Origin: an uncultured Erysipelotrichaceae bacterium
GTDB lineage: Bacteria; Bacillota_I; Bacilli_A; RF39; UBA660
DNA: 64,000 nucleotides
Direction of reading: 5' to 3'
Assembly: GCA_902780395.1 (NCBI GenBank)
Contig: CACZFH010000002.1
Span: forward strand, 22,335 to 86,334
In this document: positions 26,431-47,541 of the stretch, in pieces
Numbering within the stretch: position 1 is the stretch's first letter
Layout: each line of letters opens with the position of its first letter
Notes under the pieces: model-generated
The model's database searches: none
The model's input: only the letters and a program-made list of their open reading frames with translations
What the model was told of the DNA's origin: nothing
Program-made: the position numbers and the translations under genes

Positions 26431-26468
26431 TGTGTTGCTTCTTATTTTTTATAGAAAGAAGGTAAATT

Positions 26469-29386: not shown

Positions 29387-29390
29387 TAAT

Positions 29391-30311
29391 ATGGCTTCAA
29401 TAAACGATTGGATTAATGCAGCTAATAATTTAAAACAACAAACAATAAATGATTATGTTAATAAAAATCAAGGTATATTAAATTCAATTAATAGTCAAAG
29501 AGACGCAGAATTAGCAGGACTAGCAAATTCTAATCAACAAGCTTTAAATAAACTTGCACAAGATAAAGATACTGTTAATGAGACAGCTTTAAATAATGCA
29601 AAAGCTGCTAATGTTAATAGACTTCTTGCATTAAGAGATAATAAAAATGCTTTGAGTCGTGCTGGTCTTTCTTCACAAGGATTAGTTGGTTCTCAGGTTA
29701 ATTCTATTAATAATAACTATGGAACTAATTTAAATACTATTTTAAAAGATAAAGCAACTGGACTAAGAGATATTGAAAATCAAATAAATAATACTAATTT
29801 AACCTATGATACTAATAAACAAAATTTGACTGCTCAATATGCTTCAACACTTGCTCAACAACAAGCAGCTATTAATAATGCAGCACAACAATTAGGTATG
29901 CAAGCTTATAATGATTATATTTCTCAACAACAAGCTTATGCTAATTATGAACAACAAAAAGCAGAAGCAGAACGTCAATATCAACTTCAATTACAACAAT
30001 TAAGAAGTAGTGCAAGTGGATCTAACTGGAGTGATGGTGGTGGAGGATATGCTGTTAATACTGCATACTATCAAGGTGATTTAAATCCTGACGCAAGAAA
30101 TGGAACATTCAGCAATGGATATCAACCTAATAATGTTAATGGAGTTAAATTATCTAAAACAAGTAATACAATTACATTTAATACAAAAACTTTAAGTGGT
30201 CAAAAACAAACTGTTACTCAAAACATATGGAAAGCAGGTAAAAAATACTATTATTGGGACGGAAGATATAATAGATATATTCAATGTACAAAAACAGGTA
30301 AGAAGGTGTAA
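29391..30311 (+). CDS. Q/N-rich virion-module protein
   Basis: ORF track; RBS agagggga. Strongly Asn/Gln/Ala-biased composition. Confidence 0.55.
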   Translation: MASINDWINAANNLKQQTINDYVNKNQGILNSINSQRDAELAGLANSNQQALNKLAQDKDTVNETALNNAKAANVNRLLALRDNKNALSRAGLSSQGLVGSQVNSINNNYGTNLNTILKDKATGLRDIENQINNTNLTYDTNKQNLTAQYASTLAQQQAAINNAAQQLGMQAYNDYISQQQAYANYEQQKAEAERQYQLQLQQLRSSASGSNWSDGGGGYAVNTAYYQGDLNPDARNGTFSNGYQPNNVNGVKLSKTSNTITFNTKTLSGQKQTVTQNIWKAGKKYYYWDGRYNRYIQCTKTGKKV

Positions 30312-30314
30312 TTT

Positions 30315-33300: not shown

Positions 33301-36300
33301 TAAATAATTCATCATGGCAAGAACATTTAGAAAAAAATTATAAATCAAAAGGAACTAAAACTAATTTTGAAGATACAAGATTAGATACTAACAATACTGA
33401 ACAGAATCTTATTAATAAAGAAACTGACCGTTTAACAAAAAAATATGAACGAGAAAAGAATAAAAATAAGAAAATTATTACTAAAGAGGCTTCTAAGATT
33501 CTTGAATTTGATGATTATCAACAAAAAAGAAAATTTACTGATTTAGTATCAGAATATTACGATAATCCTGATTTAAATAAAATTAAACAAGATATTAGAG
33601 ATAATTTTAGTGAAAAAAGAATTGAGTATGTTAATGATTATGTTAAAGATATTAAAAATGTAATTAGAGGAACTGATTTACAAATAACTGATTATGTTAG
33701 AAGAAATTTAACTGATTTCGGAAATTTCAGAAAAGAAAATTTCAATAAATTAAAACTAAAGAATCAAGGACAATCAATTGATTCTTTTTATAATGAATTA
33801 GCAGAAGATTATCCTTCAGTATTTAGTAAAGATATAACTAATGAAGTAGACCAATTAGAAAGAATGTCTGAGTTTATGAATGAAGACGATAAATTCTATG
33901 AGAAATACAATTTAGATGATAATGCTATTAATGAAGCAGCACAATATGTCTATGATTCTATAAAAAATAAAGATAATATTGATGATTTAATAAATAGTAT
34001 TTCAATTTCACCAAAACAAATTAGGAAAGAAAAAACTGTAGAATATAGAGAATATGCAGAAGACTTTGTTAATAACTCAGAAGACTGGGTTGATAAGAAA
34101 TTAGGTCTTTCATATAAAACTAATACAATGAAACGTAATTTTTATGATGTTATGGGTAAAAAAGATGGTGGAAGGTTATACCATAGTTATATTGAACCTA
34201 TTTTTAATCATAATGCTCAAATGCAGAATGATATTTCTTCTTATAATGAAAAGATTGGTAAATTAAAATTAAATGATAAAGAATCAACTGCAGTTCAGAT
34301 GTTTGGAGAATATAAATATAATCCTGAAACATTAGTAACAGGAATGGAAGTTGATGAATTTATTACTAAAAATAAATTAGATCATAAAAAGATTGAAAAT
34401 GCTGTTGAAGTATTTAGATCTACTTATGATGAATTGATAGAAAGAGTTAATGAAACTCTTAAATCTCAAGGATATAAAGAAATAGAATATCGTAAAGGTT
34501 ATTTCCCACACTTTGTTGAAGAAGGTGCTAAGACTAAATTTGGTAAAGTTTTAGAAAAAATGGGCTGGAAATTCAAAGACGATTCAGTTCCAACTGATAT
34601 TGCAGGAATAACTGATACATTTAAACCAGGTAAAGTATGGAATCGTAATGCACAACAAAGGAAAGGAAAATATACTGATTTTAATGCTTTAAAAGGTTTT
34701 GATAATTATGTACGTGGAGCTATGGAAACAATATACTTCACAGAAGATATTCAAAAGCTTAGAGCTTTAGAAAATGAAATACGTTATCAACATTCTGAAA
34801 AAGGTGTACAAACTCAAATTGATGAGATATTAAGTGATACTTCAATTGATTTTGAAGAAAGACAAGAGAAGATTGATAAGATATTTACTAAATATAAAAC
34901 TCCATTAAATAATTTAGTTAGTGAAATAAGAGATTATACAAATAGTATAGCCAATAAAAAATCTATTTTAGATAGAACAATGGAACAAGCAACGAATAGA
35001 AAAGTTTATAGTGTTATGCAGAATATAAGTAGTAGATTAAGTGCTAATATGGTTGGATTAAATCTTTCAAGTGCTATTACAAACTTTATTCCAATTACAC
35101 AAGCAACTTCACAAGTTAAATCCAAATATTTATTAAAAGGACTTCGTGAATCTATCAAAAATCAGGTTGTAGCCGATAATTTTGAGAGTAAAAGTGTTTT
35201 CCTTACTTCAAGACTAAACGAGGCTGATAAGTTATTTAAAACACGTTTAGAAAAGTTTTCTGAAAAAGCAAACTTCATGTTTGAAGGAATTGATTCTATT
35301 ACAGCTAATACTATTGTTAGAGGAAAGTATTACGAAAATATTGCGAATGGTATGAGCGAATACAATGCAATGAGAAATGCTGATGAATTTGCACGTGATT
35401 TAATGGCTGGAAGGACTAAAGGTGAAATGCCTACCATATTTAATTCTAAGAATCCATTTGTTAAGCTTTTCACTTCATTTCAATTAGAGGTTAACAACCA
35501 ATATCAATATATGTTTAAAGATCTTCCAAGAGATTTAGCAGATGAACCTAAAAAGAAACTAATTGCTGCATTTGCTAAGATGTTTTTTGGAGCATGGATC
35601 TATAATCAATTAACTGAAAAAGTTGTTGGTAGAAAAGCAGCATTTTCTCCAGCTGATACAATAAAAGAAATATATGATACTTCAACCGATAAAAATCTTA
35701 AAATAAATGAAAAAAGTTCTAATATTCTTGAAAAATTAACTCAAGATGTTCCATTTGTTGGTAGTTTAGTAGGTGGTGGACGTCTTCCAATTAGTAGTGT
35801 CGCTAATCCTCTTAATGTAATAAAAGGAGAAAGTACAGTCGGAGATGAAGCTAAAAAACTTCTTTATTATACAGTTCTTCCTTTTGGTGGTGGTCAATTA
35901 AAAAAGACTACTGAAGGGGCTTCAATGTATGTTAATGATAAAAAGATTAAAGGAAGTTATACCAATAAAGGTAAACTAAGATTTGAAGCTAAAAAAGATG
36001 TAGGTTCTGTTGCACAGAATCTTTTATTTGGGCAATATTCTAGTAAAGAAGCAAGAGAATACTTTGATAAAGGATACCTTCCGATTGACTCTAAAACAAT
36101 AGATAAATTAGAAAAACAAGGTGTATCTATTAATGAATATAGAAAATATTCAGACGATAAGAAAGAATTAGGTTTAAATGAAATAAAATCTGATAAGGAT
36201 TCAGATGGAAAATCAATCAAAGGAACAGCTTCTGCGAAGAAAGCTCTTGCTATTATGAATAGTAATTATTCTAAAAAAGAAAAAGAATATTTAATCTCTA

Positions 36301-36893
36301 ATTTATCTAGTTCTGATAATGCAGTGTCTTTAAGCGATTTAAATAATCTAAAGAAAGATGAAAAGACTTATAAATTTTACTTTGGTTTAAATGAAGATAA
36401 TAGAAAGACATTTAAAAATGAACTTAATGATTTAGGAATGTCTTCTAGTGAATTAATTAAGTATTATGAAACTAGAAAAGAATATAAAGATACATATACA
36501 TCTAATTATTCAAGAAATAACTTAATGAATTACATAAATAGTTTAAATGTAAATGATGATACTAAATGGTATTTATATAATAAAGACTATGGTAGTGATA
36601 ATTTATCAACTGTTGTAGATAAGTTTAATCTAAAATATAGCGATTATTATAATGTTAAAAAATATTCTGAAGAAATTTCCACAAGATATAGTGGAAATAA
36701 AAATTCTAAAATAAGGAAAGAATTAGTATTTAAATATATTAATAATCTAAAATTAAATAAAGTTCAGAAAAGTATCTTATTTAAAGAAGCTGGTTATAGT
36801 GATTCAACAAGTAAACAAATAGTATTTAACTATATTAATTCTATGAATATTAGTAAACAGGAAAAGCAAAAATTATATAATTCTATATTTTAA
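30315..36893 (+). CDS. giant virion-associated protein (2192 aa) with a zincin HExxH motif; ejection or polyvalent-type protein
   Basis: FILTHEITHAIDNKE (HExxH). Gly-rich hydrophobic segments near the N- and C-terminal thirds. Located in the structural operon. Confidence 0.6.
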   Translation: MANYFLNDDGSTSLKRKNKKNGKNYIQQEDGSTIEEVYEEPKKAQLPKAKQKEPKQDSFSTATKKLSDTYNNSFTKNNGLSFSNVVTDLANLYDANNNVLKSLPVAGNLFKAREVARDTIVNGATNLGTGALKSIEGTADFLSDVVANPIEQGINYGIDYVKSGKKVADENLKDLKKQQKRDIKRNLTKEFQDKVGYTDVVDDLEKNSLIKRDNLAGQVTQAVGGMVPALVMGQAFAGAEPALQSTEGLSGLNKAKVIAGNMGKSFTSQMPSNLMLGTSSYGSGMEEALNNGATIEQARLYGIGNSAKEMATEWITGGIPGLGGKGGLDLPAEKLIDKTTGKIKNEYAKAFAKTLANYGYKFVGEGLEEGLSEILDPYLKNATYSNGEKINWQEVFSSFIVGGLTGGILEAPNTAVDFNNNMVEANNNIQQKKATLPVANTNAVNKNSLQSQNNIEGNPLIENKNPVSLPLDKNTVQKLNSVNQTQERFIYETSDNSKIDNFRRSANQFMNNSNETKSFVQTVEKVINDKGYNVTFDNSIGDNINGRIGINENGEVDIKVNPNSDRAGEFILTHEITHAIDNKEMRELVLDYAKKNSEFNEALESLKQTYGVDDVNDEVLADISGQLFGTEEFINKLSTTKPSLFKKLYDKIINFANKITGNSKESLFIKDLKNKWEKAYRESDDNVAQKNLNKSKFSIKENSNGKYVNIDTDQNIFDGIDEKDYNKIAKMYINDYLRGNTQLSSNDTAIIDSTSSKKYTNPGKRQNYFTEKMKLTPELKNVLQIAEKIDSSSPSKDNSKYNNWEYYKFDFNLNGKNFEAVVNIGIDSNNNKHFYEVNNIKKRTDGISETSLNSPTSSITNNIPQNEKNVNNFKEKQLEIIKNNNPVEDDYHTWIRNVDDIKTLSETLEDSDWSDYDEFNPDLTRADIDKALETGKITVYSSYPIEQGIFISPSKMEAESYSADGKVYSKEVNIDDVAWIDPTQGQYAKVDTKDSLNNSSWQEHLEKNYKSKGTKTNFEDTRLDTNNTEQNLINKETDRLTKKYEREKNKNKKIITKEASKILEFDDYQQKRKFTDLVSEYYDNPDLNKIKQDIRDNFSEKRIEYVNDYVKDIKNVIRGTDLQITDYVRRNLTDFGNFRKENFNKLKLKNQGQSIDSFYNELAEDYPSVFSKDITNEVDQLERMSEFMNEDDKFYEKYNLDDNAINEAAQYVYDSIKNKDNIDDLINSISISPKQIRKEKTVEYREYAEDFVNNSEDWVDKKLGLSYKTNTMKRNFYDVMGKKDGGRLYHSYIEPIFNHNAQMQNDISSYNEKIGKLKLNDKESTAVQMFGEYKYNPETLVTGMEVDEFITKNKLDHKKIENAVEVFRSTYDELIERVNETLKSQGYKEIEYRKGYFPHFVEEGAKTKFGKVLEKMGWKFKDDSVPTDIAGITDTFKPGKVWNRNAQQRKGKYTDFNALKGFDNYVRGAMETIYFTEDIQKLRALENEIRYQHSEKGVQTQIDEILSDTSIDFEERQEKIDKIFTKYKTPLNNLVSEIRDYTNSIANKKSILDRTMEQATNRKVYSVMQNISSRLSANMVGLNLSSAITNFIPITQATSQVKSKYLLKGLRESIKNQVVADNFESKSVFLTSRLNEADKLFKTRLEKFSEKANFMFEGIDSITANTIVRGKYYENIANGMSEYNAMRNADEFARDLMAGRTKGEMPTIFNSKNPFVKLFTSFQLEVNNQYQYMFKDLPRDLADEPKKKLIAAFAKMFFGAWIYNQLTEKVVGRKAAFSPADTIKEIYDTSTDKNLKINEKSSNILEKLTQDVPFVGSLVGGGRLPISSVANPLNVIKGESTVGDEAKKLLYYTVLPFGGGQLKKTTEGASMYVNDKKIKGSYTNKGKLRFEAKKDVGSVAQNLLFGQYSSKEAREYFDKGYLPIDSKTIDKLEKQGVSINEYRKYSDDKKELGLNEIKSDKDSDGKSIKGTASAKKALAIMNSNYSKKEKEYLISNLSSSDNAVSLSDLNNLKKDEKTYKFYFGLNEDNRKTFKNELNDLGMSSSELIKYYETRKEYKDTYTSNYSRNNLMNYINSLNVNDDTKWYLYNKDYGSDNLSTVVDKFNLKYSDYYNVKKYSEEISTRYSGNKNSKIRKELVFKYINNLKLNKVQKSILFKEAGYSDSTSKQIVFNYINSMNISKQEKQKLYNSIF

Positions 36894-36907
36894 GGAGTGT
36901 GATCTTA

Positions 36908-38251
36908 ATGCCTTTGTATGATCCTAAAAATGATACTGATAATGTATCTTATGGTTTTTTAAAAAAAGTTTTAGGTGATAAACTCTATGAAAATACAAAA
37001 AATACTTCTATAAGTTATTCTAAGAACTTTGGATCCACTCCGACTGTTCCTTATACTAAAGGAGATACGTGGAACAGAGGAGATAATATTTATATATGTA
37101 TTAATAGTAGAGATGTTGGCAATTTTAAAGAAGAAGATTGGCAAGTCTTATATGATAAGGAGACTAATGAAATAATATCTAATAGTTTTCAGTTTTTATC
37201 TTCAATTGATTTAATTAAAACTGATGATGGATATATTGAAACTTTTTATCAATCTGATGATCCTTCTACAAATTGGAATAGTACCATTAAGCCTAATCAT
37301 GTAGGAGATTATTACATGAATTCAACAACTTTTAAAACATATAAATATTCGACTACATACGAGTGGGAAGAAGTATCTGTTACAACTATAATATTTAATA
37401 ATATTACAGGACATAGAAGAATATTTACAAGTAGGCCAAGTACTTATGATGAAGGAGATATTTGGAAAATAAATAACACTAATGATGTTGATTTGTTTAC
37501 AAATATAGCTTTAAATGATTTTTTACAAGCAAGAGTTTCAAATAATATTTTTACAGAAACAGATTGGGAATTAATATCAAATGAATTAAATATCAAAGCT
37601 AATTTATATTCTATTGGTGGAAAAATGGTTTCAGCAAATAACGTATTTTCTAATTTACAATATTCTTCATTTGGTAAACATGGAGGATATGATGTTTTAG
37701 GTTTTGATGAATATTTAGGATTAGGAGACACGAGTGGAGAAATTGCTGTCATGGGAGGTTTATATAGAGGTTATGCAGATATAGCTATTGATATAGACTT
37801 GCCTGATAATTTTAAAGTTGTTTCTGCTTTCCTATCAGTTTATCATACTCCTATTTATTGGTCATATGCTACAGGAGGTACTTCTATAAATGCTTGGGGT
37901 GCTTCTAAAAACGTTAAATTGTATAAGATGGCTGAGGAAAAAAATCTTAAACTCTTATATCAAAATTCTTTAACTTATAGATGGAAAATAAATGCTTCTA
38001 ATTTAACAGAAATACCTAATGCTTTTGGAGCAACATCTTATTCTTTTGCAAATACGCAAAATGTTACTGTTGAAAGAAAAGATTCTGTTAATTTAAAAAA
38101 TTATATTAATTCAACAGGAAAAACAAAACTTGTTGTTAGAACAGGTGATTCGATTCCAAGCAGTGCTAATACTATGGTTTCTAATACAGGAATGGCTAGA
38201 GCTGTAGTTAATATTTTAGGATATGTAGATTTGAAAGGAAGTGGTAGTTAA
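36908..38251 (+). CDS. tail / baseplate-associated structural protein
   Basis: The ATG lies 10 nt after RBS aaggag. Position in the tail module. Confidence 0.5.
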   Translation: MPLYDPKNDTDNVSYGFLKKVLGDKLYENTKNTSISYSKNFGSTPTVPYTKGDTWNRGDNIYICINSRDVGNFKEEDWQVLYDKETNEIISNSFQFLSSIDLIKTDDGYIETFYQSDDPSTNWNSTIKPNHVGDYYMNSTTFKTYKYSTTYEWEEVSVTTIIFNNITGHRRIFTSRPSTYDEGDIWKINNTNDVDLFTNIALNDFLQARVSNNIFTETDWELISNELNIKANLYSIGGKMVSANNVFSNLQYSSFGKHGGYDVLGFDEYLGLGDTSGEIAVMGGLYRGYADIAIDIDLPDNFKVVSAFLSVYHTPIYWSYATGGTSINAWGASKNVKLYKMAEEKNLKLLYQNSLTYRWKINASNLTEIPNAFGATSYSFANTQNVTVERKDSVNLKNYINSTGKTKLVVRTGDSIPSSANTMVSNTGMARAVVNILGYVDLKGSGS

Positions 38252-38625
38252 TGGTTAAAACAGATGGTACAACAATAAAAGTTTTTAGAGGAGATAGTGG
38301 TCATTTTGATATATCTAAAACTGATAGCGATGGAAATATAGAACAATTCAAACAGGGTGATAAAGTTATACTAAGTGTTAAAGAAAATTTTGGAGAAAAT
38401 AATGTATTACTTAGAAAAACTATAACCGTTGAAAATGATTGTGATAAAGTTGAATTTCCTATTACTGCAGAAGAAAGTATATCTTTAAGTTCATTAATAT
38501 CTGAACCAATTGAATATGAATATGATATTAAAGTTGAAGGTTCGGATTATTCAACAATTATAGGTCATGATGATTCAGGTGCTAAAATATTTAAAGTTTA
38601 TCCAACTGGAAGTGTTGATTCATGA
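38251..38625 (+). CDS. small tail-module protein
   Basis: ORF track; overlapping start and stop with neighbours. Confidence 0.5.
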   Translation: MVKTDGTTIKVFRGDSGHFDISKTDSDGNIEQFKQGDKVILSVKENFGENNVLLRKTITVENDCDKVEFPITAEESISLSSLISEPIEYEYDIKVEGSDYSTIIGHDDSGAKIFKVYPTGSVDS

Positions 38626-39680
38626 TAGAAGAAGAAAATGAAATAACAATTGATGTATCTTCGTCAAGTAGTATTAATACTTCTATCTCAGGAGATAATA
38701 ATATTAATACTAATATTGATTCATCTAATAGTGTATCTTCTTCTATAAATTCTTCTAGTGGTATTAATACTGATATCGAAGGCTATGGTCCACCTGGTCC
38801 AAAAGGTGCTGATGGAATTACTTGGATTCCTGAAATAGAAGAAGTTAATACTGTTGATTATAATGAAGAAGCTTCAGCTTCAGTTAGAACTTTACTTAAT
38901 AAAATGTTATTCATTTTTAATATACCTAAAGGAAAACCTGGAGATATGAGTAAATCAGTTTATGATACCAATGATAACGGTAATGTTGATAATGCTGATA
39001 ATGCTTTATCTCTTGATGGTTTATCAAAAACTGATATTTTAAATAGTCTTGATGATTTAGGAGATTCTTATACAAGCCTAGATCGTGCGTTAAGTACCTT
39101 CGAATCTTATATAGAAAATAAGATTGATAGTATAGAAACTCCACCAATAGGAATAATTAGTCCGTTTGGAGGAAGCAATGCTCCACCTGGTTGGTTGATA
39201 TGTGATGGAAGTGCAGTTTCACGTATTTTATATGATGAATTATTTCAAGTTATTGGAACGACTTATGGTAGTGGAGATGGATCTACTACTTTTAATTTGC
39301 CTGATTTGAGAAAAAAAATCCCTATTGGTTATTCAAGTAACGAAAATGGTTATGATACGATAGGCAATAGTATTGGTAATGAAACACATTCTTTAACTGT
39401 TGCAGAACTTGCTAAACACAATCATAGTGGTTCTACAGGAAATGCTGGAGGACATAGCCACTTAATGTACAATAAATGGAATACGTATGCTGCAGGTGAT
39501 ACAAGTGGTAATGGATTTACTTCACCAGGTAATGGCTGGAATCAAGATGGGTGGTCTGATAATTATACTAGTGCTGTAGGAGATCATTCTCACTCTGTTT
39601 CAATTGGAAATACTGGAAATGGAGATCCTTTTAGTCTTATTCAACCAAGTTTATTAATGAATTACATTATTAAGTGTTAG
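38622..39680 (+). CDS. tail fibre protein with a short collagen-like stretch and a phage tail-collar domain
   Basis: GYGPPGPKGADG. ISPFGGSNAPPGWLICDGSAVSRILYDELFQVIGTTYGSGDGSTTFNLPDLR is a classic tail-collar/MdpB-like motif. Confidence 0.75.
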   Translation: MIEEENEITIDVSSSSSINTSISGDNNINTNIDSSNSVSSSINSSSGINTDIEGYGPPGPKGADGITWIPEIEEVNTVDYNEEASASVRTLLNKMLFIFNIPKGKPGDMSKSVYDTNDNGNVDNADNALSLDGLSKTDILNSLDDLGDSYTSLDRALSTFESYIENKIDSIETPPIGIISPFGGSNAPPGWLICDGSAVSRILYDELFQVIGTTYGSGDGSTTFNLPDLRKKIPIGYSSNENGYDTIGNSIGNETHSLTVAELAKHNHSGSTGNAGGHSHLMYNKWNTYAAGDTSGNGFTSPGNGWNQDGWSDNYTSAVGDHSHSVSIGNTGNGDPFSLIQPSLLMNYIIKC

Positions 39681-40966
39681 GAGGTGTAATTATTAAACAA
39701 ATAATTTTAAATGTTACTACAGATAAAGTAACAATAAAACAAAATGCTAATCTTAATAAGGGAGAATACAATGTAACTAAATGTAAATTTCTCTTTGACA
39801 AAGATTATAATAATTTAGTGAAGAAAGCTGTGTTTTTTATAAATGATTCAGCTATTGAATTGAGTCTTGATTCAAATAATGAATGTTATGTTCCAAATGA
39901 ATGTTTAGTCTATAAAGGGAATATTGAAATTGGAGCATTCGGACTTATTTCTAATAACAATACTCTTGAAAAAGTATATTCTCCTGATCCTATATCGAAG
40001 GAAGTAATTGATGGTTCTTATACATCAAATACAACTAATACAGTTCCTCTTACTCCAACTGATAAGGAGCAAATAGAATCTGCAATTCAAACTAATGCAA
40101 ATAATATTGAGATTTTAGATGAAAATAAAGTTGATAAAGTTGAAGGATATGGTTTATCCAAAAATGATTTTACTGATACTCTTAAATCTAAACTTGATGG
40201 AATAGAAGCTTCAGCTGATGTAAATTTAATTGAAAGTATATCTGTAAATGGAACTGCTAGAACAATTACAAATAAAAATGTTGATATTATTGTTCCAACT
40301 AAAACAAGTGATTTAACAAATGATAGTGATTTTACTACTAATGATCATGTAGATAATGTTAAAGAATATTTAGAAGAAAAGATAGATGATAATACAGAAG
40401 CTATAGGTGATAATGCAGACGCAATTGATGAAATTAATAGTAATTTGTTAAATTATTCATTGATAAGTGAAACAGGAAATAAAATTCAATTATTGATGGA
40501 TACTTCTACATATAAAATAAAAGCTATTTTAAAAGATAAAAATAATAATACTATTGATACTTCTAATGAAATAGATTTACCAATGGAATCTGTTGTATTA
40601 AGTGTTACTTATAATAGTACAGATAAAGAATTAGTAATAACTCTTCAAAATGGATCTATTACTAGAGTTCCATTAACATCACTTATTTCGGGTCTTGTTA
40701 ATGTAGATACTTTGGAATCTACATTAGATGATTATGTTTTAGTTTCTGATTATAATGCAGCAATATCTAATTTGGAAACAGGTAAAGCTGATAAAAGCAC
40801 AACTTATACAAAAAATGAAGTTGATCAATTACTTATTGATGGTAATTATAATTTTGCTACTTTTGAATTAGATATTGATACAGGAGAATTATATTTGAGA
40901 AAAACAGATGATATGTTATTACAATTTAATATTGATGAAAATGGCTATTTGGAGGTGATTATTTAA
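39674..40966 (+). CDS. tail fibre / fibre-shaft protein
   Basis: ORF track; repetitive T/N/D-rich sequence. Start uncertain (GTG at 39674). Confidence 0.55.
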   Translation: MLGGVIIKQIILNVTTDKVTIKQNANLNKGEYNVTKCKFLFDKDYNNLVKKAVFFINDSAIELSLDSNNECYVPNECLVYKGNIEIGAFGLISNNNTLEKVYSPDPISKEVIDGSYTSNTTNTVPLTPTDKEQIESAIQTNANNIEILDENKVDKVEGYGLSKNDFTDTLKSKLDGIEASADVNLIESISVNGTARTITNKNVDIIVPTKTSDLTNDSDFTTNDHVDNVKEYLEEKIDDNTEAIGDNADAIDEINSNLLNYSLISETGNKIQLLMDTSTYKIKAILKDKNNNTIDTSNEIDLPMESVVLSVTYNSTDKELVITLQNGSITRVPLTSLISGLVNVDTLESTLDDYVLVSDYNAAISNLETGKADKSTTYTKNEVDQLLIDGNYNFATFELDIDTGELYLRKTDDMLLQFNIDENGYLEVII

Positions 40967-42915
40967 TGGCTATAAGAGAAAAAATAGGAAAAGTAAGTTA
41001 TGTTCATAAAGGAATATATAATTCATCAACTACTTATAACAGATTAGATGTTGTTAATTATAATGGATCTAGTTATGTATCAAGAACAGATAATAATACT
41101 AGTAGTCCAACAGATACAAGTGCATGGACTTTATTAGCATATTCACCAGTTAAGGGAATTGATTATTGGACCACACAAGAATTAGCTGATTTTGTACAAA
41201 AGACAGATCCTGAAACAATACCTAATAAGTTTACATTTACAACATTACCTGAAGCGAATATAGATCCTACTACAAATAATCAATTTACAAGGAAAAAATA
41301 TGTTGATGATAATGTTGCTAATATAAATGGATTCCTTCTTAATGGAACAAATCCAACAAAAATAAAAGATTTTTTAACTATGATGAGAGCTATGCTAGTT
41401 ACAGAAGGTGAATATGGTGTTGAATGGGATTTGTTCGCAACTAACAATAGTTCTAGCTGTACTAAATTGTATGATAATGTAGGATTAAGTATCACTCCTG
41501 GAACTGATTCAGTTGCAGAAGTAAACAATTATCCTAAAATATTTGAATCAATTGATTGTAATTATATCAATATTAATGGAGAAGATATTATTACAGCATT
41601 AAAAGGAATGTCTAATTATGGTGAGACTCCTTCAGAAATACAAGATGTTACAATTGATGGAGTAACTTATACTCCTGATGTTGGAACTGTACATTTTTCA
41701 AGATATGAAAAATATGGAATAAATAGTTCAGGGAAAATGGAATACTCTATGTCATGGATTCCAAGAGATGGATATACTCTTATTGATTTAGGAAAAGATA
41801 AAAATGGAAACTTTAAACCATATTTCATTATTGCAAAATATGTTGCAGGATATGATAATAATAACAAAGTAAGAAGTGCTGCAGGATTAGATCCTGCATG
41901 TCATTTAACAGGTTCTTCTGCAGGAGATGAAAATGCAGATCATAACATGAATTATACAAATTGTATTACTATTTTCCATACAAGAGGTAATTATTATTCT
42001 GCTGCTTTAATGTCAGAATATGGATTTATTATGAGAGACTTTTGGTTAAAGTTCGCCACAAGAAACACTCAATCAATTATGGCTGGAAATACATCAAACA
42101 ACTATCAATATGCTGTAGCGACTGCTGAAACAGGAGTTCATAGAGTTGTTTTAACAAATGCACAAGCTGCAAATATTGATTTATTAAGTTGTGTTTCTGT
42201 TGGTGATAGAGGCACTGCCACTAATAATGATCGTATTAATAAATATCTTCACAATATTTGTAAATCTGCTAGAGTAATAGCTAAAGAAACTGTAGATACA
42301 GATCATACAGCTTTAATTCTTGATCATGCTAACTTTAACACTACTTCTACTACTTATGTTTCTACAATGCACGAAAGAAGTGGTTATAGTAAGTTTGTAA
42401 GAGGTAGATATGGCTCTCCTATAAATAACACTAATGGAAAACATGGAATGGTGTTTAATGGTATAGAAATAGCTGTAGGAGGCTATGAAGTAGCAGGTAA
42501 TGCAATACTAGATATTATAGATAATACAGGAAAGAGAGAAGTTTATGTGACTAATAATGCAACAAAACTAAGTGGAACTGTTGCAACTATTAAAGATACA
42601 TATACAAAATCCTCTTTATCAATTCAACCAACTACATTAAACGCATGGAATTACATAACTAGATACGATTATGATCTTACTAATGGTTTAATGGTACCTA
42701 CAGAAGCAGGTCAAAGTGGATCAGGAACTTCTACAGGATTTGCAGATGGATTATATGTGGATAATGCAACAAGTGGTCAAAGGGAATGCTTGTGGCTCGG
42801 CTTTCTGAATGCTTATGGTCTTGCTGGCATGTCCTGTCTCCATACGCGTAGTGGCTTATCACTTGTTAATTGGTTTATCCTCGCTCGTCTCTCAACAAAT
42901 GGTGTAAGGGGGTGA
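40966..42915 (+). CDS. distal tail-fibre / receptor-binding protein; DGR target gene with a C-terminal variable region
   Basis: 649 aa. N-terminal fibre motif (YNRLDVVNYNGSSYVS...SAWTLLA). The C-terminal 38 codons are the VR copy of the downstream TR. Confidence 0.8.
   Translation: MAIREKIGKVSYVHKGIYNSSTTYNRLDVVNYNGSSYVSRTDNNTSSPTDTSAWTLLAYSPVKGIDYWTTQELADFVQKTDPETIPNKFTFTTLPEANIDPTTNNQFTRKKYVDDNVANINGFLLNGTNPTKIKDFLTMMRAMLVTEGEYGVEWDLFATNNSSSCTKLYDNVGLSITPGTDSVAEVNNYPKIFESIDCNYININGEDIITALKGMSNYGETPSEIQDVTIDGVTYTPDVGTVHFSRYEKYGINSSGKMEYSMSWIPRDGYTLIDLGKDKNGNFKPYFIIAKYVAGYDNNNKVRSAAGLDPACHLTGSSAGDENADHNMNYTNCITIFHTRGNYYSAALMSEYGFIMRDFWLKFATRNTQSIMAGNTSNNYQYAVATAETGVHRVVLTNAQAANIDLLSCVSVGDRGTATNNDRINKYLHNICKSARVIAKETVDTDHTALILDHANFNTTSTTYVSTMHERSGYSKFVRGRYGSPINNTNGKHGMVFNGIEIAVGGYEVAGNAILDIIDNTGKREVYVTNNATKLSGTVATIKDTYTKSSLSIQPTTLNAWNYITRYDYDLTNGLMVPTEAGQSGSGTSTGFADGLYVDNATSGQRECLWLGFLNAYGLAGMSCLHTRSGLSLVNWFILARLSTNGVRG
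42787..42900 (+). repeat. DGR variable region (VR)
   Basis: Aligns base-for-base with 42999-43112 (offset 212). 18 of the 23 mismatches are at positions where the TR has A. Confidence 0.9.
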
Positions 42916-42946
42916 ATTGGCCTTGCCAAGAGGGGACTCCCCCTTA
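42905..42946 (+). promoter_or_regulatory. GC-rich hairpin immediately 3' of the VR (candidate DGR target-recognition structure)
   Basis: taaggggg (42905-42912) pairs with ccccctta (42939-42946). Inner stem ttgg/ccaa. It spans the stop codon at 42913-42915. Confidence 0.55.
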
Positions 42947-42960
42947 ATTAATTAAAAGTA

Positions 42961-42969
42961 TGCTATAAT
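42961..42969 (+). promoter_or_regulatory. extended -10 promoter element TGcTATAAT upstream of the TR
   Basis: Exact TGnTATAAT match 30 nt before the TR start. Confidence 0.4.
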
Positions 42970-42998
42970 ATTAATGAGGACCCGAAAAAGAGGTTTTT

Positions 42999-43112
42999 TG
43001 CTTGTGGCTCGGCAATCTGAATAATAATGGTAATGCTGGCTTGTCCTGTCTCAATACGAATAATGGAATATCAAATGGTAATTGGAATATCCTCGCTCGT
43101 ACCTCAAGATAT
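42999..43112 (+). repeat. DGR template repeat (TR)
   Basis: Non-coding copy of the VR. Read in the VR frame it contains 11 AAT codons (CLWLGNLNNNGNAGLSCLNTNNGISNGNWNILARTS). Confidence 0.9.
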
Positions 43113-43326
43113 AATTAATATGAGTTAAATTTTCAGGGCCGTACCCAAGAAGGACATAGATGTAAATCTATCTCATTTAGCATAGCTAAAATTTAAGATT
43201 GAAACACCAACTTGAAAGTTCTACAAAGCACATCAAGAGAACGATTAGAGACGTTATATGTTAATGGATATAATGTGGGGTTAGTAGTAAAGTCCGAAAG
43301 CCCCTGATATCTTGAGAGGTTATATT

Positions 43327-44571
43327 ATGAAACGATATTTAAAGAATTTTGAGTTATCAGAGGAATTTGTTAGAAATTGTCTCTTTGATTGTTTAGGTGG
43401 CTCACCTACGAGAAAGTCAAGATGGAAAGAAAAAAAGACTATCTTTTTTCTTGCAGAATATTTGATGAAGTGGGAATATCTTCATAATTTTCAAGAGATA
43501 TCTAATATTAAAACTATTGCATATAGGCTATATAATTATGCTATTAATGATAAAGAAAAACTTTATCCTATAGTTAATTATGCAGCTCATGAAATGTTTT
43601 TAGAAATAAAAAATAGATCAATTAGATTAAAGAAGATTAATTATAACACTATAATTGATAAAGGATCTAAAAAAACACGTATAATCGGCTCTGCTAGTAT
43701 GAAACAACAATGTTATGATTATGTTGTTGTAAATGCTTTAAAAGATATGTTTAATGCCAAGATTGGTCATTATCAATGTGCCAGTCTTCCAAAAAAAGGC
43801 CAATTATTCGGAAAACAAGCAATTGAAACATGGATAAGAACTAATCCTAAAAAATGCAAGTGGTTTTTTAAGGCTGATGTTAAACAATTTTATCCAAGTG
43901 TTAATCATTCGATTGCTAAAAGATTATTAAAAAGAGATATTAAAAATAAAGATATACTTTATTTAGCATATACATTAATTGATACATACGGAGAAGTGGG
44001 ATTATGTATTGGTTCATATTTTTGTCAATATATGGCTAATTACATAATGTCTTATCCTTATCATTATGTTACTGAAATGTTATATCTAATAAGACGTGGA
44101 AAAAGGTATAATTTAATACATCATACCTTGTTTTATATGGACGATATAATTCTTATCGGAAGTAACAAAAAACACGTCAAAAAGGCTGCAATTGAGCTTG
44201 AAAAGTATCTTAGTAAATTCTTTTATTTAAAATTAAAATTGGATTATCAATTATTTCCTATAGATAGCAGGCCAATAGATATGATGGGATATAAAATATA
44301 TTCAGATCATACTACAATAAGAAAAAGAATATTTAAACCTGCAAATAGGTTATTTAGTAAAGTTAAAGGGAAAGATACAATGACATTAAAAGAAGCTCAA
44401 GCATTAGCCTCTTATTATGGTTATTTTAAATATACCAATAGTTATAAATATAAAAAGAAAGTAAAAATGAATCGCTCTATAAGAGTAGCGAAGGAGGTAA
44501 TATCAAATGAAGCAAAGAATAGCAGAGTTCCCAACACAACAGGGACCTTATCTATATCAACTGCAAAATGA
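43327..44571 (+). CDS. DGR reverse transcriptase
   Basis: YMDD active-site box (44134-44145). IGSYFCQ (44008-44028) sits where DGR RTs carry [ILV]GxxxSQ. ATG preceded by RBS gagagg. Adjacent to the TR. Confidence 0.88.
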   Translation: MKRYLKNFELSEEFVRNCLFDCLGGSPTRKSRWKEKKTIFFLAEYLMKWEYLHNFQEISNIKTIAYRLYNYAINDKEKLYPIVNYAAHEMFLEIKNRSIRLKKINYNTIIDKGSKKTRIIGSASMKQQCYDYVVVNALKDMFNAKIGHYQCASLPKKGQLFGKQAIETWIRTNPKKCKWFFKADVKQFYPSVNHSIAKRLLKRDIKNKDILYLAYTLIDTYGEVGLCIGSYFCQYMANYIMSYPYHYVTEMLYLIRRGKRYNLIHHTLFYMDDIILIGSNKKHVKKAAIELEKYLSKFFYLKLKLDYQLFPIDSRPIDMMGYKIYSDHTTIRKRIFKPANRLFSKVKGKDTMTLKEAQALASYYGYFKYTNSYKYKKKVKMNRSIRVAKEVISNEAKNSRVPNTTGTLSISTAK

Positions 44572-44821
44572 TGGACGTGCAGTTGTTTTTATTAGAGATT
44601 TTATTAGAGAAGATCATAGAGAATCTGAAGAAGGAACCGAAGAGGTTCTTTTTGTTTACAATGAAAATGAATTTATTGTAAATTCTGAAGAAATAACAGA
44701 AGAAATGATTGCAGCAAATCCATTAAGTTGGATTGATTATGATAATACAGAACCAACATTTGAAGAACAGGTAATAACTGCTTTAAATGACATTGGTGAG
44801 TTTTTAGGAGGGTTGCTATAA
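44507..44821 (+). CDS. acidic small phage protein (XkdW-like position)
   Basis: Strong RBS aaggagg before the ATG. Overlaps the RT 3' end by 65 nt in another frame. Confidence 0.55.
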   Translation: MKQRIAEFPTQQGPYLYQLQNDGRAVVFIRDFIREDHRESEEGTEEVLFVYNENEFIVNSEEITEEMIAANPLSWIDYDNTEPTFEEQVITALNDIGEFLGGLL

Positions 44822-44934
44822 TGGTACAGTTTTATGTGAAATTAGTAAGAGAAGGTAAAAAAAGAATAGATCAAGTTCCACCAATTTGGAGAGAAGAAGT
44901 AAGAAAAATAATAGAAGGTGAGGATATTATATGA
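44821..44934 (+). CDS. XkdX-like small phage protein (37 aa)
   Basis: Own translation: MVQFYVKLVREGKKRIDQVPPIWREEVRKIIEGEDII. This small-protein type commonly precedes holins in Firmicutes phages. Its stop overlaps the next ATG. Confidence 0.5.
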   Translation: MVQFYVKLVREGKKRIDQVPPIWREEVRKIIEGEDII

Positions 44935-45245
44935 CATTTGATAGTATCAAAAACTTCTTTGTAGTATTATTTGCTTTATGTGGTGCTATCTCTGTTGTTG
45001 GTGGTGCAATTAATCTAATTTTGAATTGGAAAAAAGGAAGCAAAATAACTAAACATGAAATAACTTTACAAAATCATGAAAGAAGAATAAAAAAATTAGA
45101 AGACGATTCGGAAGGACAAGAATCATTTACAAAAGTTTTATGTAATTCTGTCTTGGCATTAGTCAGTCATGAAATAAATGGTAATTCTCATGACAAATTA
45201 GAGAAAGCTCAGGAAGAGCTTCAAGAATTTTTAATAAATAAATAA
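44931..45245 (+). CDS. membrane / coiled-coil lysis-cassette protein (holin-associated, XhlA-like?)
   Basis: N-terminal TM segment (FFVVLFALCGAISVVGGAINLIL), then a coiled coil. Confidence 0.45.
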   Translation: MTFDSIKNFFVVLFALCGAISVVGGAINLILNWKKGSKITKHEITLQNHERRIKKLEDDSEGQESFTKVLCNSVLALVSHEINGNSHDKLEKAQEELQEFLINK

Positions 45246-45265
45246 TTAAATGAGGAGGTAATATT

Positions 45266-45517
45266 ATGAATACTGAATACCTAATTGCATTAATATCTAT
45301 TGTAGTTGAAATTGTATTAGGATTTGTTGCAAAAAAACACCCTAAATTTAAAAATCAGTTAATACCTATCCAAAATATATTAGTTGGTGTAATAATTGCA
45401 ATAATAAAATATTTCATCACAAAAGATTTTAGTTTTGCAATAGCTGCAAGTGGATTAATTGCAGGTGGAACATATGATATAGTCCATAATTTAAGAAAAT
45501 TGAAGGGAGAAGAATAA
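45266..45517 (+). CDS. holin
   Basis: 83 aa with hydrophobic helices and a charged C-terminus (NLRKLKGEE). Immediately upstream of the endolysin. Confidence 0.7.
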   Translation: MNTEYLIALISIVVEIVLGFVAKKHPKFKNQLIPIQNILVGVIIAIIKYFITKDFSFAIAASGLIAGGTYDIVHNLRKLKGEE

Positions 45518-45518
45518 T

Positions 45519-46526
45519 ATGCAAAAATTTGGAATTGATTTATCACACCATAACGCAGGAATTAATTTTAATATTTTAAAAGATACTGGAGTAGAATTTG
45601 CTATTTTAAGGGCTGGTTATACTGGCTATGGAAATGGAGTAAGTAAAGCTAAAGACAACCAATTTGAAAATTTTTATAATCAATGTAAAGAAAAAGGAAT
45701 TGGTGTAGGAGCTTATTGGTTTACGTGTGCTAATTCATATGAAAAAGGTGTATCTGAAGCTAATTGGATTTATGAAAATTGTTTAAAAGGAAAGCAATTC
45801 GATTATCCTATATATATTGATGTTGAAGATGATACTGGTGAACGTCGTTGGTTAAGAAATGCAGGGAAAGAAGCAATTACTGATGGTATATGTGGCTTTT
45901 GTGAAAGACTTGAAGAACTTGGTTATTATGTAGGAATATACGCTAATCAAGATTGGTTTAATAATTGGATTAATCAAGAAAGAGTTAAACGATATGATAA
46001 ATGGTTAGCTTATTGGACAAAAAATAAACCTAGTAACTACCTTGCTAATACAATGTGGCAATTTGGTGGAGAAACAAATTATGTAAGAAGTCCATATATT
46101 GCAGGTCAATGTGTAGATCAAGATTATTGCTATTATGATTATCCAGAAATTATTAAAAAACTTGGATTTAATGGATATCCAAAAAATACTACAACTCAAA
46201 CACCTAGTTCACCTTCAAAACCAGTTAAGAAAAGTATAGACGAGATTGCTAGAGATGTTATTAATGGTAAGTATGGAAATTATCCAGAAAGAAAAACAAA
46301 TCTTGAAGCTGAGGGATATAATTATTCTGAAGTGCAAGGTAGAGTAAATGAAATATTAAATGGAACATCTTCTCCAACAGCCCAATATTATACAGTTGTA
46401 GCAGGTGATAATTTAACTAGAATAGCAAATAGATATAATACTACAGTCAATAATCTATTAAAGTTAAATCCTAATATAAAAAATAAAAATTTAATATATG
46501 TAGATCAAAAAGTAAGAGTTAAATAA
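45519..46526 (+). CDS. endolysin: GH25 muramidase + Cpl-7-like repeat + LysM
   Basis: FGIDLSHHN...YWF (GH25-type N-terminus). IARDVINGKYGNYPERKTNLEAEGYNYSEVQGRVNEIL (CW_7-like). YYTVVAGDNLTRIANRYNTTVNNLLKLN (LysM). Confidence 0.85.
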   Translation: MQKFGIDLSHHNAGINFNILKDTGVEFAILRAGYTGYGNGVSKAKDNQFENFYNQCKEKGIGVGAYWFTCANSYEKGVSEANWIYENCLKGKQFDYPIYIDVEDDTGERRWLRNAGKEAITDGICGFCERLEELGYYVGIYANQDWFNNWINQERVKRYDKWLAYWTKNKPSNYLANTMWQFGGETNYVRSPYIAGQCVDQDYCYYDYPEIIKKLGFNGYPKNTTTQTPSSPSKPVKKSIDEIARDVINGKYGNYPERKTNLEAEGYNYSEVQGRVNEILNGTSSPTAQYYTVVAGDNLTRIANRYNTTVNNLLKLNPNIKNKNLIYVDQKVRVK

Positions 46527-46530
46527 AAGA

Positions 46531-46561
46531 AGTTAGCCAATTAAGGCTAACTTTTTTTTTG
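46531..46561 (+). terminator. intrinsic terminator ending the late operon
   Basis: Stem agttagcc / loop aattaa / stem ggctaact, followed by a T9-10 run. Confidence 0.8.
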
Positions 46562-46740
46562 CACAAAAAAAGTTAAAAAATGTGCAAAATTGTATTTTTA
46601 ATACAATTTTTGCATGAAAATTGTAAAAATGAGAGAAAAAATCACATATTTGAGTATAAAATGTATCTGAATTTTAAAAATTAGTCATTTGCATATATAT
46701 TTATATTGTTATATTATATCGCCTGAAAGGAGGGATTATA

Positions 46741-46914
46741 ATGTACCAAACAAGAAGATTAAATGATGAAGAGATTGCTAAAATTAATGAAATATATGAT
46801 ACTGATTATAAAGTAATCTTAATTCAAAAAAAGAAAAATAAGTATTATGCAATACTTGATTGTGATGAAAAAATAGAAGTAAAAGAAAAAGAAGTGGCAA
46901 ATTATTTTATGTAA
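46741..46914 (+). CDS. small hypothetical protein (57 aa) in the prophage right-end accessory region
   Basis: Own translation: MYQTRRLNDEEIAKINEIYDTDYKVILIQKKKNKYYAILDCDEKIEVKEKEVANYFM. RBS aaaggaggg. Confidence 0.45.
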   Translation: MYQTRRLNDEEIAKINEIYDTDYKVILIQKKKNKYYAILDCDEKIEVKEKEVANYFM

Positions 46915-47393
46915 TTGCCACTTTTCGCTATTTTATTGTATTTAACGGTATAATCCTGTCCGAATGTTTTTATAAACCATTCTAATGACTTTCTTTCAAC
47001 ATATAATTGTTGGAATAATAATTTATATTCTAAATTAAATATTATATTATTATGAAATAAATTGTGATGATTTTTACATAGAGGACATATTGCTCCATTT
47101 AAAATAGATCTATTTCTGAATGAACCTTCAAAAACTTCGTTTGATTCTACTTTATAATATGGTGTTTCACAACCTTCTACGCAGCATTTATTCATATCCT
47201 TATATATAATACTATATCTATTTTTTTCTTTCTTAGCTTGTTTATAAGTTCTTTGCTTTATTTTCTTTTGCTGAATATTTTTATATTCTTTATATTTACA
47301 TAACTTACAATCATCTATAGTTATAATCTTCTTTCTTTTTTTACAATATAGTGTTCTATTTAATTTAATTTTTAAATTAATACAATTATTCAT
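46902..47393 (-). CDS. Cys-rich zinc-finger / HNH-like (HNHc_6/DUF968-type) phage protein
   Basis: CxxC pairs, and ...EVFEGSFRNRSILNGAICPLCKNHHNLFHNN. The ORF track starts it at 47408; the second ATG has the better RBS (aaagga). Confidence 0.5.
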   Translation of the reverse strand: MNNCINLKIKLNRTLYCKKRKKIITIDDCKLCKYKEYKNIQQKKIKQRTYKQAKKEKNRYSIIYKDMNKCCVEGCETPYYKVESNEVFEGSFRNRSILNGAICPLCKNHHNLFHNNIIFNLEYKLLFQQLYVERKSLEWFIKTFGQDYTVKYNKIAKSGNYIK

Positions 47394-47521
47394 ATTTAAT
47401 CCTTTCATTTGAAGTCTTAAATATTACTTAAAAATTCAAAAACTGTATCAAATACAATTTAATTAATTGTTCTAATTGGTATAAATACTACATTAACAAA
47501 CTATATCTTAACTATTAATTT

Positions 47522-47541
47522 AATTCCGTACTCGTCACCAA
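47522..47541 (+). repeat. attR core (aattccgtactcgtcaccaa)
   Basis: Exact copy of 9680-9699. Confidence 0.9.

Follow-up and report, generated by a model that had tools for sequence, protein, structure and literature searches.

[quoted passage not shown] According to the explanation that we prefer, to which we give a probability of about 0.65, this is an active Avd-less target-TR-RT DGR whose RT works with the RNA of the spacer and without Avd, the small acidic ORF next to the RT gene encoding a chaperone or partner of the fibre. The DGR is borne by a temperate phage (37.9 kb) of a low-GC Bacillota host, and the cassette is arranged in the order target, 83-nt gap, TR, 214-nt gap, RT and an overlapping acidic ORF of 104 amino acids (Table 1).

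Table 1. Position of the DGR, of its parts and of the neighbouring lysis genes within the window
Feature	Coordinates	Strand	Basis and remarks
Prophage carrying the DGR	9680..47541	.	About 37.9 kb; alignment of IMG/VR contig L044
DGR target gene, 649-aa distal tail-fibre protein, VR at the C-terminus	40966..42915	+	ORF and PHROG matches
Variable repeat (VR), core	42787..42888	+	Repeat pair with TR; whole unit 42787-42900
IMH-like GC-rich block, then G/C-rich inverted repeat just 3' of the stop codon	42878..42946	+	Sequence reading
Template repeat (TR), core	42999..43100	+	Repeat homology reaches 43112
Conserved structured TR-RT spacer RNA	43101..43326	+	12 aligned relatives, covariation
DGR reverse transcriptase, 414 aa	43327..44571	+	RVT_1 and phrog_1423; alternative TTG start 43312
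104-aa acidic beta-rich protein	44507..44821	+	65-nt overlap with the 3' end of the RT gene; unannotated cassette-linked family
Lysis module (XhlA-like, holin, endolysin)	44931..46526	+	Weak XhlA and holin Pfam matches; closes the late operon, outside the DGR

The contig L044 from IMG/VR (37,784 bp, direct terminal repeats, completeness rating of 100%) aligns to the window over 42004-45494 and 46551-47541 and then over 9680-10741. The assembly of the host genome is a draft of 1.8 Mb in 73 contigs, rated 96% complete. Between the stop codon of the target and the TR there are 83 nt (42916-42998), and 214 nt separate the end of the TR at 43112 from the RT ATG at 43327. An earlier note on this DNA had given the same two lengths and had described both gaps as free of ORFs; coordinates and stop-to-stop frames agree with it, no frame in either gap exceeding 47 amino acids and the longest ones being the TR's own frame or antisense. 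The target protein matches phrog_17147 (2.7e-69), and its N-terminal tail-fibre match is phrog_5073. Downstream of the cassette, the lysis block is swapped or missing in other phages that keep the target, the TR, the RT and the small ORF together.

In order to describe the activity of the system, the repeats were compared within the window and between copies of the phage. Over the 102 nt of the core (42787-42888 against 42999-43100), 18 of the 20 mismatches fall at adenines of the TR and two at other bases; the 114-nt repeat unit at 42999-43112 holds 33 adenines. The VR of the target, whose core ends 27 nt from the target stop codon, is the sole VR in the genome. Mutagenic homing is evidenced by the sister copy of the phage, L044: its TR is identical to that of the window, while the two VRs differ at 23 sites, 21 of which are TR adenines (the other two are non-adenine sites private to the window, at which L044 matches the TR). 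Since the TR is unchanged and the VR differs, mostly at TR adenines, between two copies of one phage, the DGR is recently active. In addition, in each of 12 relatives with the same layout, TR adenines account for 13-18 mismatches and other bases for no more than five.

At the end of the VR, the motif tcctcgctcgt is common to VR and TR and is followed by divergence. The hairpin just beyond the stop codon (42918-42946) is built of GGGGG...CCCCC around TTGGC-CTT-GCCAA, and this G/C-rich structure is retained at the deletion junctions of relatives that have lost the RT. Four features by which a DGR is recognised were found together: an adenine-specific TR/VR pair, a bRT-like RT, a VR at the 3' end of the target with an IMH-like block and hairpin, and evidence of ongoing homing.

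The 214-nt spacer between the TR and the RT is a conserved RNA, supported by covariation. When the sequences of 12 relatives were aligned and folded with RNAalifold, 20 pairs were obtained in the spacer, 14 of them with compensatory changes. In this alignment 95.6% of the cells were paired, against 44-50% with the partners slid, and the observed values were reached by none of 500 shuffles. The helices join 43103-43109 to 43310-43316, 43141-43146 to 43152-43157, 43158-43161 to 43170-43173 and 43277-43281 to 43300-43304. A scan against Rfam returned no match for the spacer.

The RT was identified by its matches to RVT_1 (1.8e-12) and phrog_1423 (8.5e-63). Its AlphaFold2 model (pLDDT 88.9) has bRT (8ub7) as top PDB match, with E 1.6e-17 and a TM of 0.80 over the target. 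The protein carries YMDD, and IGSYFCQ is found where [LIV]GxxxSQ is expected (Ser to Cys); the closest relatives share this variant and most of the lineage has SQ. Residues 115-373 align to residues 71-313 of bRT, and the protein has about 44 extra residues at the N-terminus and about 26 at the C-terminus. Four N-terminal helices occupy residues 12-95 of the model, according to which the four-helix N-terminal extension is enlarged relative to that of bRT.

From these elements the following mechanism can be proposed. The TR-spacer transcript would fold around the very basic RT (pI 9.8), and the enlarged four-helix N-terminal extension may, together with the basic C-terminal tail, replace Avd in positioning the template:primer duplex. 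The spacer would provide the primer for the cDNA, which would be mutagenised at adenines and then directed to the VR via the IMH-like block and the hairpin. The TR-RT unit would be lodged between the fibre gene and the gene of the fibre's own chaperone or partner; intermolecular chaperone or partner genes normally lie directly downstream of tail-fibre genes.

Avd was searched for with four models, PF22296 (bAvd), phrog_3206, PF05635 and TIGR02436, the Avd of BPP-1 being used as positive control. PF22296 detects this control at 2e-37 and also matches the Avd of VP585 (6e-28), and phrog_3206 detects the control at 6e-31. No match to PF22296 was obtained in the genome itself, in 10 genomes with related RT loci or in 49 phage records. 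With phrog_3206, no match was obtained in the 49 phage records, and the best match in the genome was a 74-aa ORF on another contig (E = 0.03). PF05635 and TIGR02436 gave no match either, but PF05635 also missed the BPP-1 control; their null results are therefore uninformative for bAvd-type proteins, and both models were dropped as sole evidence in favour of the two others. Across the four models, no Avd was found in the cassette, the complete 37.8-kb phage or the 1.8-Mb genome, nor in 85 phage records with related RTs. No HRDC domain (PF00570) was found in the phage or in 17 related phage records; the host has a single copy, found on contig C5 within an open frame that spans 241 amino acids or more. 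The earlier note had reported Avd as missing and had proposed a profile search for Avd and HRDC; with the controls detected, PF22296 and phrog_3206 bear out the absence in cassette, prophage and genome, no small ORF of the prophage matches Avd and the phage has no HRDC.

An Avd-less target-TR-RT layout is itself already known. The earlier note had contrasted it with the biochemically characterised DGR, which needs Avd, but 29% of 372 DGRs had no accessory genes in the survey of Wu et al. 2018 (NAR 46:11, PMC5758913), where this layout is described as Architecture A; the cassette is thus not new in kind. The same study (PMC5758913) found no avd elsewhere in the genomes of accessory-less DGRs and an RT lineage lacking avd. 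The present cassette has the composition of Architecture A1, namely a TR-RT core, an adjacent target and no accessory gene of the four classes described there (avd and HRDC checked by profile). Matched by layout, it resembles A1/'Lineage 3' of Wu et al. 2018 in its TR-RT core, its adjacent upstream target and its lack of avd, HRDC and MSL, as well as in the absence of avd elsewhere in the genome, its carriage by a phage and its single C-terminal VR. What is new is the covariation-backed spacer RNA, the enlarged N-terminal extension of the RT and a beta-rich, RT-overlapping small-ORF family that almost constantly follows this RT lineage, none of them described there. No data on Avd-less DGRs were found in Roux et al. 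2021 or in two recent DGR papers.

With the DGR of BPP-1 (mtd-avd-TR-spacer-brt; 8ub7-8ubf) the system has in common the adenine-specific transfer from TR to VR, a VR at the tip of the tail fibre that is followed by an IMH-like block and hairpin, a structured TR-RT spacer and the fold of the RT. However, it is not a canonical avd-TR-RT cassette of the BPP-1 type (Architecture B), because no Avd gene separates the target from the TR. Furthermore, the RT is longer (414 against 328 amino acids), as is the spacer (about 214 against 140 nt), and IGSYFCQ replaces the IGSLTSQ of BPP-1. Handa et al. report that Avd positions the duplex by way of the N-terminal extension of bRT. For BPP-1, retrohoming with a plasmid reporter has been reconstituted in E. 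coli K-12 (PMC12875486).

The small ORF has its own SD (AGGAGG, 44492-44497) inside the RT gene. Its product has a pI of 4.05 (family mean 4.31 ± 0.19), and the AlphaFold2 model (pLDDT 84.5) consists of four strands and a C-terminal helix. No match was obtained in Pfam, PHROG or NCBIfam. Foldseek found no significant PDB match (best E 0.22), the weak ones including OB-fold SSB and PriB (E 0.3-1, TM below 0.3), and also returned two uncharacterised members of the family from BFVD. The family falls into 742 clusters when grouped at 90% identity and into 417 when grouped at 50%. Avd is a basic protein (pI about 9.5) that forms a four-helix bundle. The pI of the small protein, its beta-rich model and the lack of any match to the Avd models led us to reject an Avd identity for it, in keeping with the earlier note, which had called it strongly acidic and unlike Avd. 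That note had also remarked that the gene sits where XkdW-like tail or lysis-module genes are found. The position is indeed that of PBSX XkdW (PF09636), a protein of about 100 amino acids whose gene is flanked by the tail-fibre gene and by XkdX/XhlA/holin/lysin genes, but the likeness is one of position only: for seven family members Pfam gave no match at E ≤ 10, and the Foldseek PDB matches included no XkdW structure. XkdW identity was therefore rejected, and the gene does not belong to the lysis module.

The small ORF is tied to the cassette more tightly than the loose positional link of the earlier note implied, since it travels with target, TR and RT across unrelated downstream genes, including those of phages of 71-176 kb. 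All 10 genome loci that continue downstream of the RT have it there, as do 68 of 75 assessable IMG/VR loci, and it spans the RT stop codon in almost all relatives, whose RT identity ranges from 100% to 30%. The high-GC sub-lineage carries the family too (E 1e-21 to 1e-28 in stop-to-stop frames). An apparent absence from this sub-lineage was rejected as an artefact of ORF calling and of the length filter. Only two carriers were found among 400 sampled genomes of the host's class, too few to inform on co-occurrence. Linkage does not distinguish a fibre chaperone from a DGR accessory, because the target gene is linked to the RT just as tightly.

Among relatives that have lost the RT, five types of junction were found (L015, L032, L129, L135 and L036). 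In all of them the small ORF is intact and comes directly after the fibre gene, with both its SD and its start codon preserved. Blautia producta DSM 2950 has four RT-less copies. Between RT-less copies the dN/dS of the small ORF is 0.12-0.25, a range equal to that of RT-bearing copies. These comparisons indicate that the family is kept intact under purifying selection after several independent deletions of the TR-RT unit, with the reservation that another DGR might in theory act in trans on prophages devoid of an RT.

Distant members of the family provide a second line of evidence. Two proteins at the same position (L115 and L122) bear a C-terminal PF16778 domain (phage tail assembly chaperone; 2.9e-20 and 1.1e-13) and two others (L104 and P0213) bear DUF4376 (8.7e-6; 2.2e-7 for P0213). 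The RT of Bacteroides phage BT-TP2 is likewise followed by a DUF4376 protein. Neither chaperone domain was found by Pfam in the small protein of the window, and its N-domain is moderately related to the PF16778-bearing members (A2 HMM 2.7e-5; hhalign probability 43%, E 2.5e-4). No fusion to an RT and no protein above 245 amino acids occurred among the 150 best representatives of the family. A search seeded with family members of 163-168 amino acids returned only Clostridia MAGs. VP585 gp21 and cr55_1 gp060, other small ORFs overlapping an RT, have no Pfam match.

Experiments have established DUF4376 proteins as tail-fibre chaperones, and their genes come right after those of the fibres (PMC7289586, PMC10579305). 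Like the chaperones of Alteromonas phages V22 (gp27) and A5 (gp9), which have DUF4376, and like PF16778 (Phage_tail_APC) proteins, the small protein is small and acidic, is encoded directly behind the fibre gene when the TR-RT unit is taken away and stays with the fibre gene upon loss of the RT. Unlike V22 gp27 and A5 gp9, it is predicted to consist of an N-terminal beta domain and a C-terminal helix, free of any chaperone domain. Judged from purifying selection after TR-RT deletion and from the tail-fibre chaperone domains of distant members, the small ORF most likely encodes an intermolecular chaperone or partner of the fibre rather than an analogue of Avd.

The 104-aa protein might instead be an unrecognised DGR accessory that replaces Avd, for example an RT-binding protein or a single-strand-binding small barrel, translationally coupled to the RT. 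A near-universal overlap with the RT stop codon, in a lineage lacking Avd, is equally expected of an RT cofactor, and the SD inside the RT gene, the persistence of the ORF with the cassette in unrelated phage backbones, a distribution complementary to that of Avd and the weak SSB/PriB-like matches point the same way. So does the resemblance to CH1, which Wu et al. 2018 put forward as a candidate accessory of Bacteroides DGRs lacking Avd and which is exclusive to DGRs without avd: compared by description, both are small, acidic and motif-free, with a pI of 4.7 ± 0.2 for CH1 and 4.3 ± 0.2 for the small-ORF family, although CH1 is longer (160-169 amino acids) and confined to Bacteroides lineage 3a. 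However, several lineages have independently lost TR and RT and yet retain the small ORF undamaged and with a dN/dS that is not relaxed, the domains fused to family members are those of tail-fibre chaperones and not RTs, a pI of 4.05 is atypical of a nucleic-acid binder, and the linkage argument applies to the target as well. We consider this explanation unlikely. The same grade is given to its wider form, in which the 417 clusters at 50% identity would constitute a new Avd-replacing accessory class of a large DGR lineage, perhaps with a role in fibre assembly as well; such a second role would account for survival of the ORF after RT loss.

Dependence of the RT on a host-encoded or unlinked factor acting in trans, such as a general RNA chaperone, an SSB or an RNase H, appears rather improbable. 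The small ORF is the only linked candidate, and members of the lineage occur exclusively in phages that infect gut and rumen anaerobes. Moreover, the 176-kb phage L040 has recruited an RNase H gene, placed after the target and before the TR-RT unit, a hint that auxiliary nucleic-acid functions matter and would be supplied by the host elsewhere. But the RT lineage spans hosts of 25% to 64% GC, which makes a specific host partner less likely. As for an Avd too divergent to be seen, or one whose gene falls in the 4% of the genome missing from the assembly, we find it hardly credible. The genome is indeed a draft, the failure of PF05635 on a canonical Avd shows that the choice of model matters, and very divergent four-helix proteins can escape profile searches. 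Against this stand the two models that detect the BPP-1 Avd (one of them the VP585 Avd as well), the null results in a complete phage and in the 85 phage records, the ORF-free gaps, and basic small prophage ORFs that match other functions or nothing. Furthermore, the sole Avd-like gene (7.7e-16) seen in the 10 other genomes with a related RT locus lies on a different contig from that locus. Taken together, the evidence leans towards an RT that works with a structured RNA and a small ORF that serves the tail fibre.

To our knowledge, the biochemistry and engineering of DGRs have all been built on the bRT-Avd pair of BPP-1, and we know of no demonstration of how priming and template positioning occur in Avd-less DGRs, which make up roughly a quarter of natural ones. 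The lineage described here offers a compact and active test case of about 1.9 kb, with the TR, a structured RNA of 214 nt, an RT of 414 amino acids and a neighbour of 104. If the RT works with RNA alone, a simpler tool for targeted mutagenesis would follow; a requirement for the small protein would instead define a new class of accessory. For annotation, it should be kept in mind that a canonical Avd is missed by PF05635 and TIGR02436, and that tight linkage to an RT is insufficient to call a gene a DGR component, since the fibre gene's own partner is linked just as tightly. Related prophages are carried by the cultured Dorea acetigenes and Hespellia stercorisuis DSM 15480, and relatives of the cassette are present in cultured strains of Dorea, Hespellia and Coprococcus.

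The DGR cassette is compact (see the table), and the gap sizes and coordinates proposed in the earlier note proved exact: 83 nt separate the target stop codon from the TR, 214 nt lie between 43112 and the RT start codon, and neither gap holds an ORF, stop-to-stop frames reaching at most 47 codons in both. Within the 102-nt core, TR and VR differ at 18 TR adenines and at 2 other bases; past 43100 the copies part ways, as expected of IMH versus IMH*. Only one VR corresponding to this TR was found genome-wide.

Features of the DGR cassette (window coordinates) and related loci lacking TR and RT
Feature or locus	Position or genome	Remarks
Target ORF, 649 aa	40966-42915	Carries repeat copy 42787-42900
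Repeat pair, 114 nt	42787-42900 (VR side) and 42999-43112 (TR side)	Repeat comparison
Long-range helix closing the TR-RT spacer	43103-43109 with 43310-43316	Covariation
RT	ATG at 43327	Matches RVT_1 and phrog_1423
Small acidic ORF	44507-44821	Starts 65 nt inside RT; AGGAGG upstream; pI 4.05
RT-less locus L015		Family member P0073; seen in 95 index blocks
RT-less loci L032-L035	Four prophages, Blautia producta DSM 2950 (complete genome NZ_CP039126.1)	Identical cassette deletion
RT-less locus L129		Family member P0060
RT-less locus L135		Family member P0052
RT-less locus L036		

The same phage is represented by an IMG/VR contig (L044; 37,784 bp, with terminal repeats, rated complete), and the comparison set the prophage bounds at 9680-47541. 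The two TRs are identical and the VRs differ at 23 positions, 21 of them TR adenines, which indicates that the DGR has homed since the two copies split. At the remaining 2, the non-adenine sites 42829 and 42866, L044 agrees with the TR; these mismatches, private to the window copy, would thus reflect post-homing drift, or RT errors, in its VR. The window DGR is a clean, active example. RT motif 4 reads IGSYFCQ (44008-44028), with Cys replacing Ser, as in its closest relatives L004, L005 and L007; most of the lineage retains SQ, and the Cys-bearing window element is active all the same. The endolysin region (45494-46551) is unalignable between the two copies, which are elsewhere roughly 96% identical; judged from the sequences, the lysin module has apparently been exchanged.

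The earlier note had recognised no Avd gene in this layout and had proposed searching the small prophage ORFs with Avd and HRDC models. PF05635 and TIGR02436 detected no Avd anywhere, but BPP-1 was negative as well, so these profiles are uninformative on proteins of the type of its Avd. Canonical Avd is recognised by PF22296, NF033474 and phrog_3206 and by neither of those two, on which alone claims of Avd absence are unsafe. With PF22296 (positive controls: BPP-1, 2e-37; Avd of Vibrio phage VP585, 6e-28), nothing better than E 0.1 was obtained in the bacterium's own genome, 10 genomes with related RT loci and 49 phage records. With phrog_3206 (BPP-1 control, 6e-31), there were zero matches across the 49 phage records; the top match in the own genome (E 0.03), a 74-aa ORF adjoining an ORF6N gene on another contig, was not accepted as Avd. 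No HRDC was found in the phages searched, and the basic small prophage ORFs matched an integrase, a sigma-like regulator, a small terminase, an HNH-like protein, or nothing. With working controls, the absence of Avd was thus borne out among the small ORFs, in the genome and in the related phages. Dorea acetigenes does have a real Avd-like gene (G407:C12:245621-246064; phrog_3206, 7.7e-16), but its contig is not the one bearing the Avd-less RT locus, and it is probably part of a second, canonical DGR in that genome.

The Avd-less layout itself is already known. In the survey of Wu et al. 2018 (PMC5758913), avd was present in 74% of 372 DGRs, while 29% were without any accessory gene (Architecture A, in which A1 is TR-RT); avd was not found elsewhere in those genomes either, one RT lineage "notably lacks avd", and Avd-independent homing was proposed. 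The window layout therefore falls in a described class. Our literature search found no paper reconstituting an Avd-less DGR.

This layout is common to 11 genome loci (RT identity 88-37%) and 80 IMG/VR loci (100-30%), and the relatives examined show 10-19 TR/VR mismatches, all or nearly all at TR adenines. The TR-RT spacer can be aligned across the lineage and contains four helices, one long-range and three hairpins, with compensatory changes in 14 of 20 pairs; pairing holds in 95.6% of cells, versus 44-50% with slid partners, and none of 500 shuffles attained the observed values. No Rfam family matched the spacer. The RT model (pLDDT 88.9) has as its nearest structure the BPP-1 RT, bRT (8ub7, TM 0.80 over the target); its N-terminal region, four helices spanning residues 12-95, exceeds the bRT counterpart by about 44 residues, and its C-terminal tail is basic. 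In the bRT-Avd-RNA structures, the N-terminal extension is the sole point of contact between the RT and Avd, whose proposed task is to position the template:primer duplex (Handa et al.). By analogy with that complex, the enlarged extension seen in our model, together with the spacer RNA, would take over this positioning. In a related Avd-less DGR of a 176-kb uncultured phage (MT835469.1; L040:3988-4497), a gene for a 169-aa RNase H (PF00075, 5.9e-12) lies between target and TR-RT, possibly as a recruited auxiliary function.

The small ORF downstream of the RT had been described as strongly acidic, in agreement with its computed pI, and as occupying the place of XkdW-like tail or lysis-module genes. 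Its family, for which Pfam, PHROG and NCBIfam hold no model, splits into 742 clusters at 90% identity (417 at 50%) and has a mean pI of 4.31 ± 0.19. In a confident AlphaFold2 model, four strands are accompanied by two short helices and by a helix at the C-terminus, and a PDB fold search with this model gave nothing significant (top matches weak, SSB/PriB-like, E at least 0.2). At every genome locus that reaches downstream, and at 68 of 75 assessable viral loci, the ORF either overlaps the 3' end of the RT gene or directly adjoins it. Since it stays with the RT even where the genes further downstream bear no relation to lysis genes, as in phages of 71, 85 and 176 kb, it belongs to the cassette rather than to a lysis module. 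A high-GC sub-lineage lacking the ORF was rejected, the apparent absence being an ORF-calling artefact.

Such linkage is what a new RT cofactor would show, a role that we consider unlikely, as the ORF also persists without the RT. In five kinds of loci devoid of TR and RT, the fibre gene is directly followed by the small ORF; in the Blautia prophages, 33 codons of the RT persist in the cassette alongside the fibre gene and the intact ORF. Of the RT 3' end, the deletion junctions retain differing amounts (nothing, about 45 or about 75 nt, or a form shortened internally), and the Shine-Dalgarno sequence, TTG start and frame are intact in every kind. Among RT-less copies dN/dS is 0.12-0.25, one pair with a common junction included, no higher than the 0.25 among RT-bearing copies. 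No fusion to an RT was found among the best 150 family representatives. Furthermore, distant members in the same position carry a C-terminal PF16778 "phage tail assembly chaperone" domain (2.9e-20, 1.1e-13) or DUF4376, and in BT-TP2 a DUF4376 protein directly follows the RT. DUF4376 proteins are tail-fibre chaperones by experiment, encoded just downstream of fibre genes (PMC7289586, PMC10579305). The simplest interpretation places the TR-RT unit between the fibre gene and a chaperone-like partner of that fibre, the small ORF; this arrangement would account both for the ORF's linkage to the RT and for its survival without it.

In a 134-kb phage, a TnpB/IS605 OrfB gene (L120:5168-6352; PF07282, 1.2e-19) is inserted between RT and small ORF, placing them about 1.4 kb apart. 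An ORF of about 110 aa also overlaps the RT 3' end in Vibrio phage VP585 (L139:3761-4105) and crAss-like cr55_1 (L140:4016-4351); one of these two DGRs has Avd, and neither ORF has a Pfam match. In Faecalibacterium phage FP_Epona, an 87-aa acidic ORF (gp60; L043:4938-5201) overlaps the RT end and lies ahead of an XkdX-family gene; at its C-terminus it bears a motif similar to that in the family member at L039, a likeness weakly supported by an iterated HMM (8e-5, tiny database).
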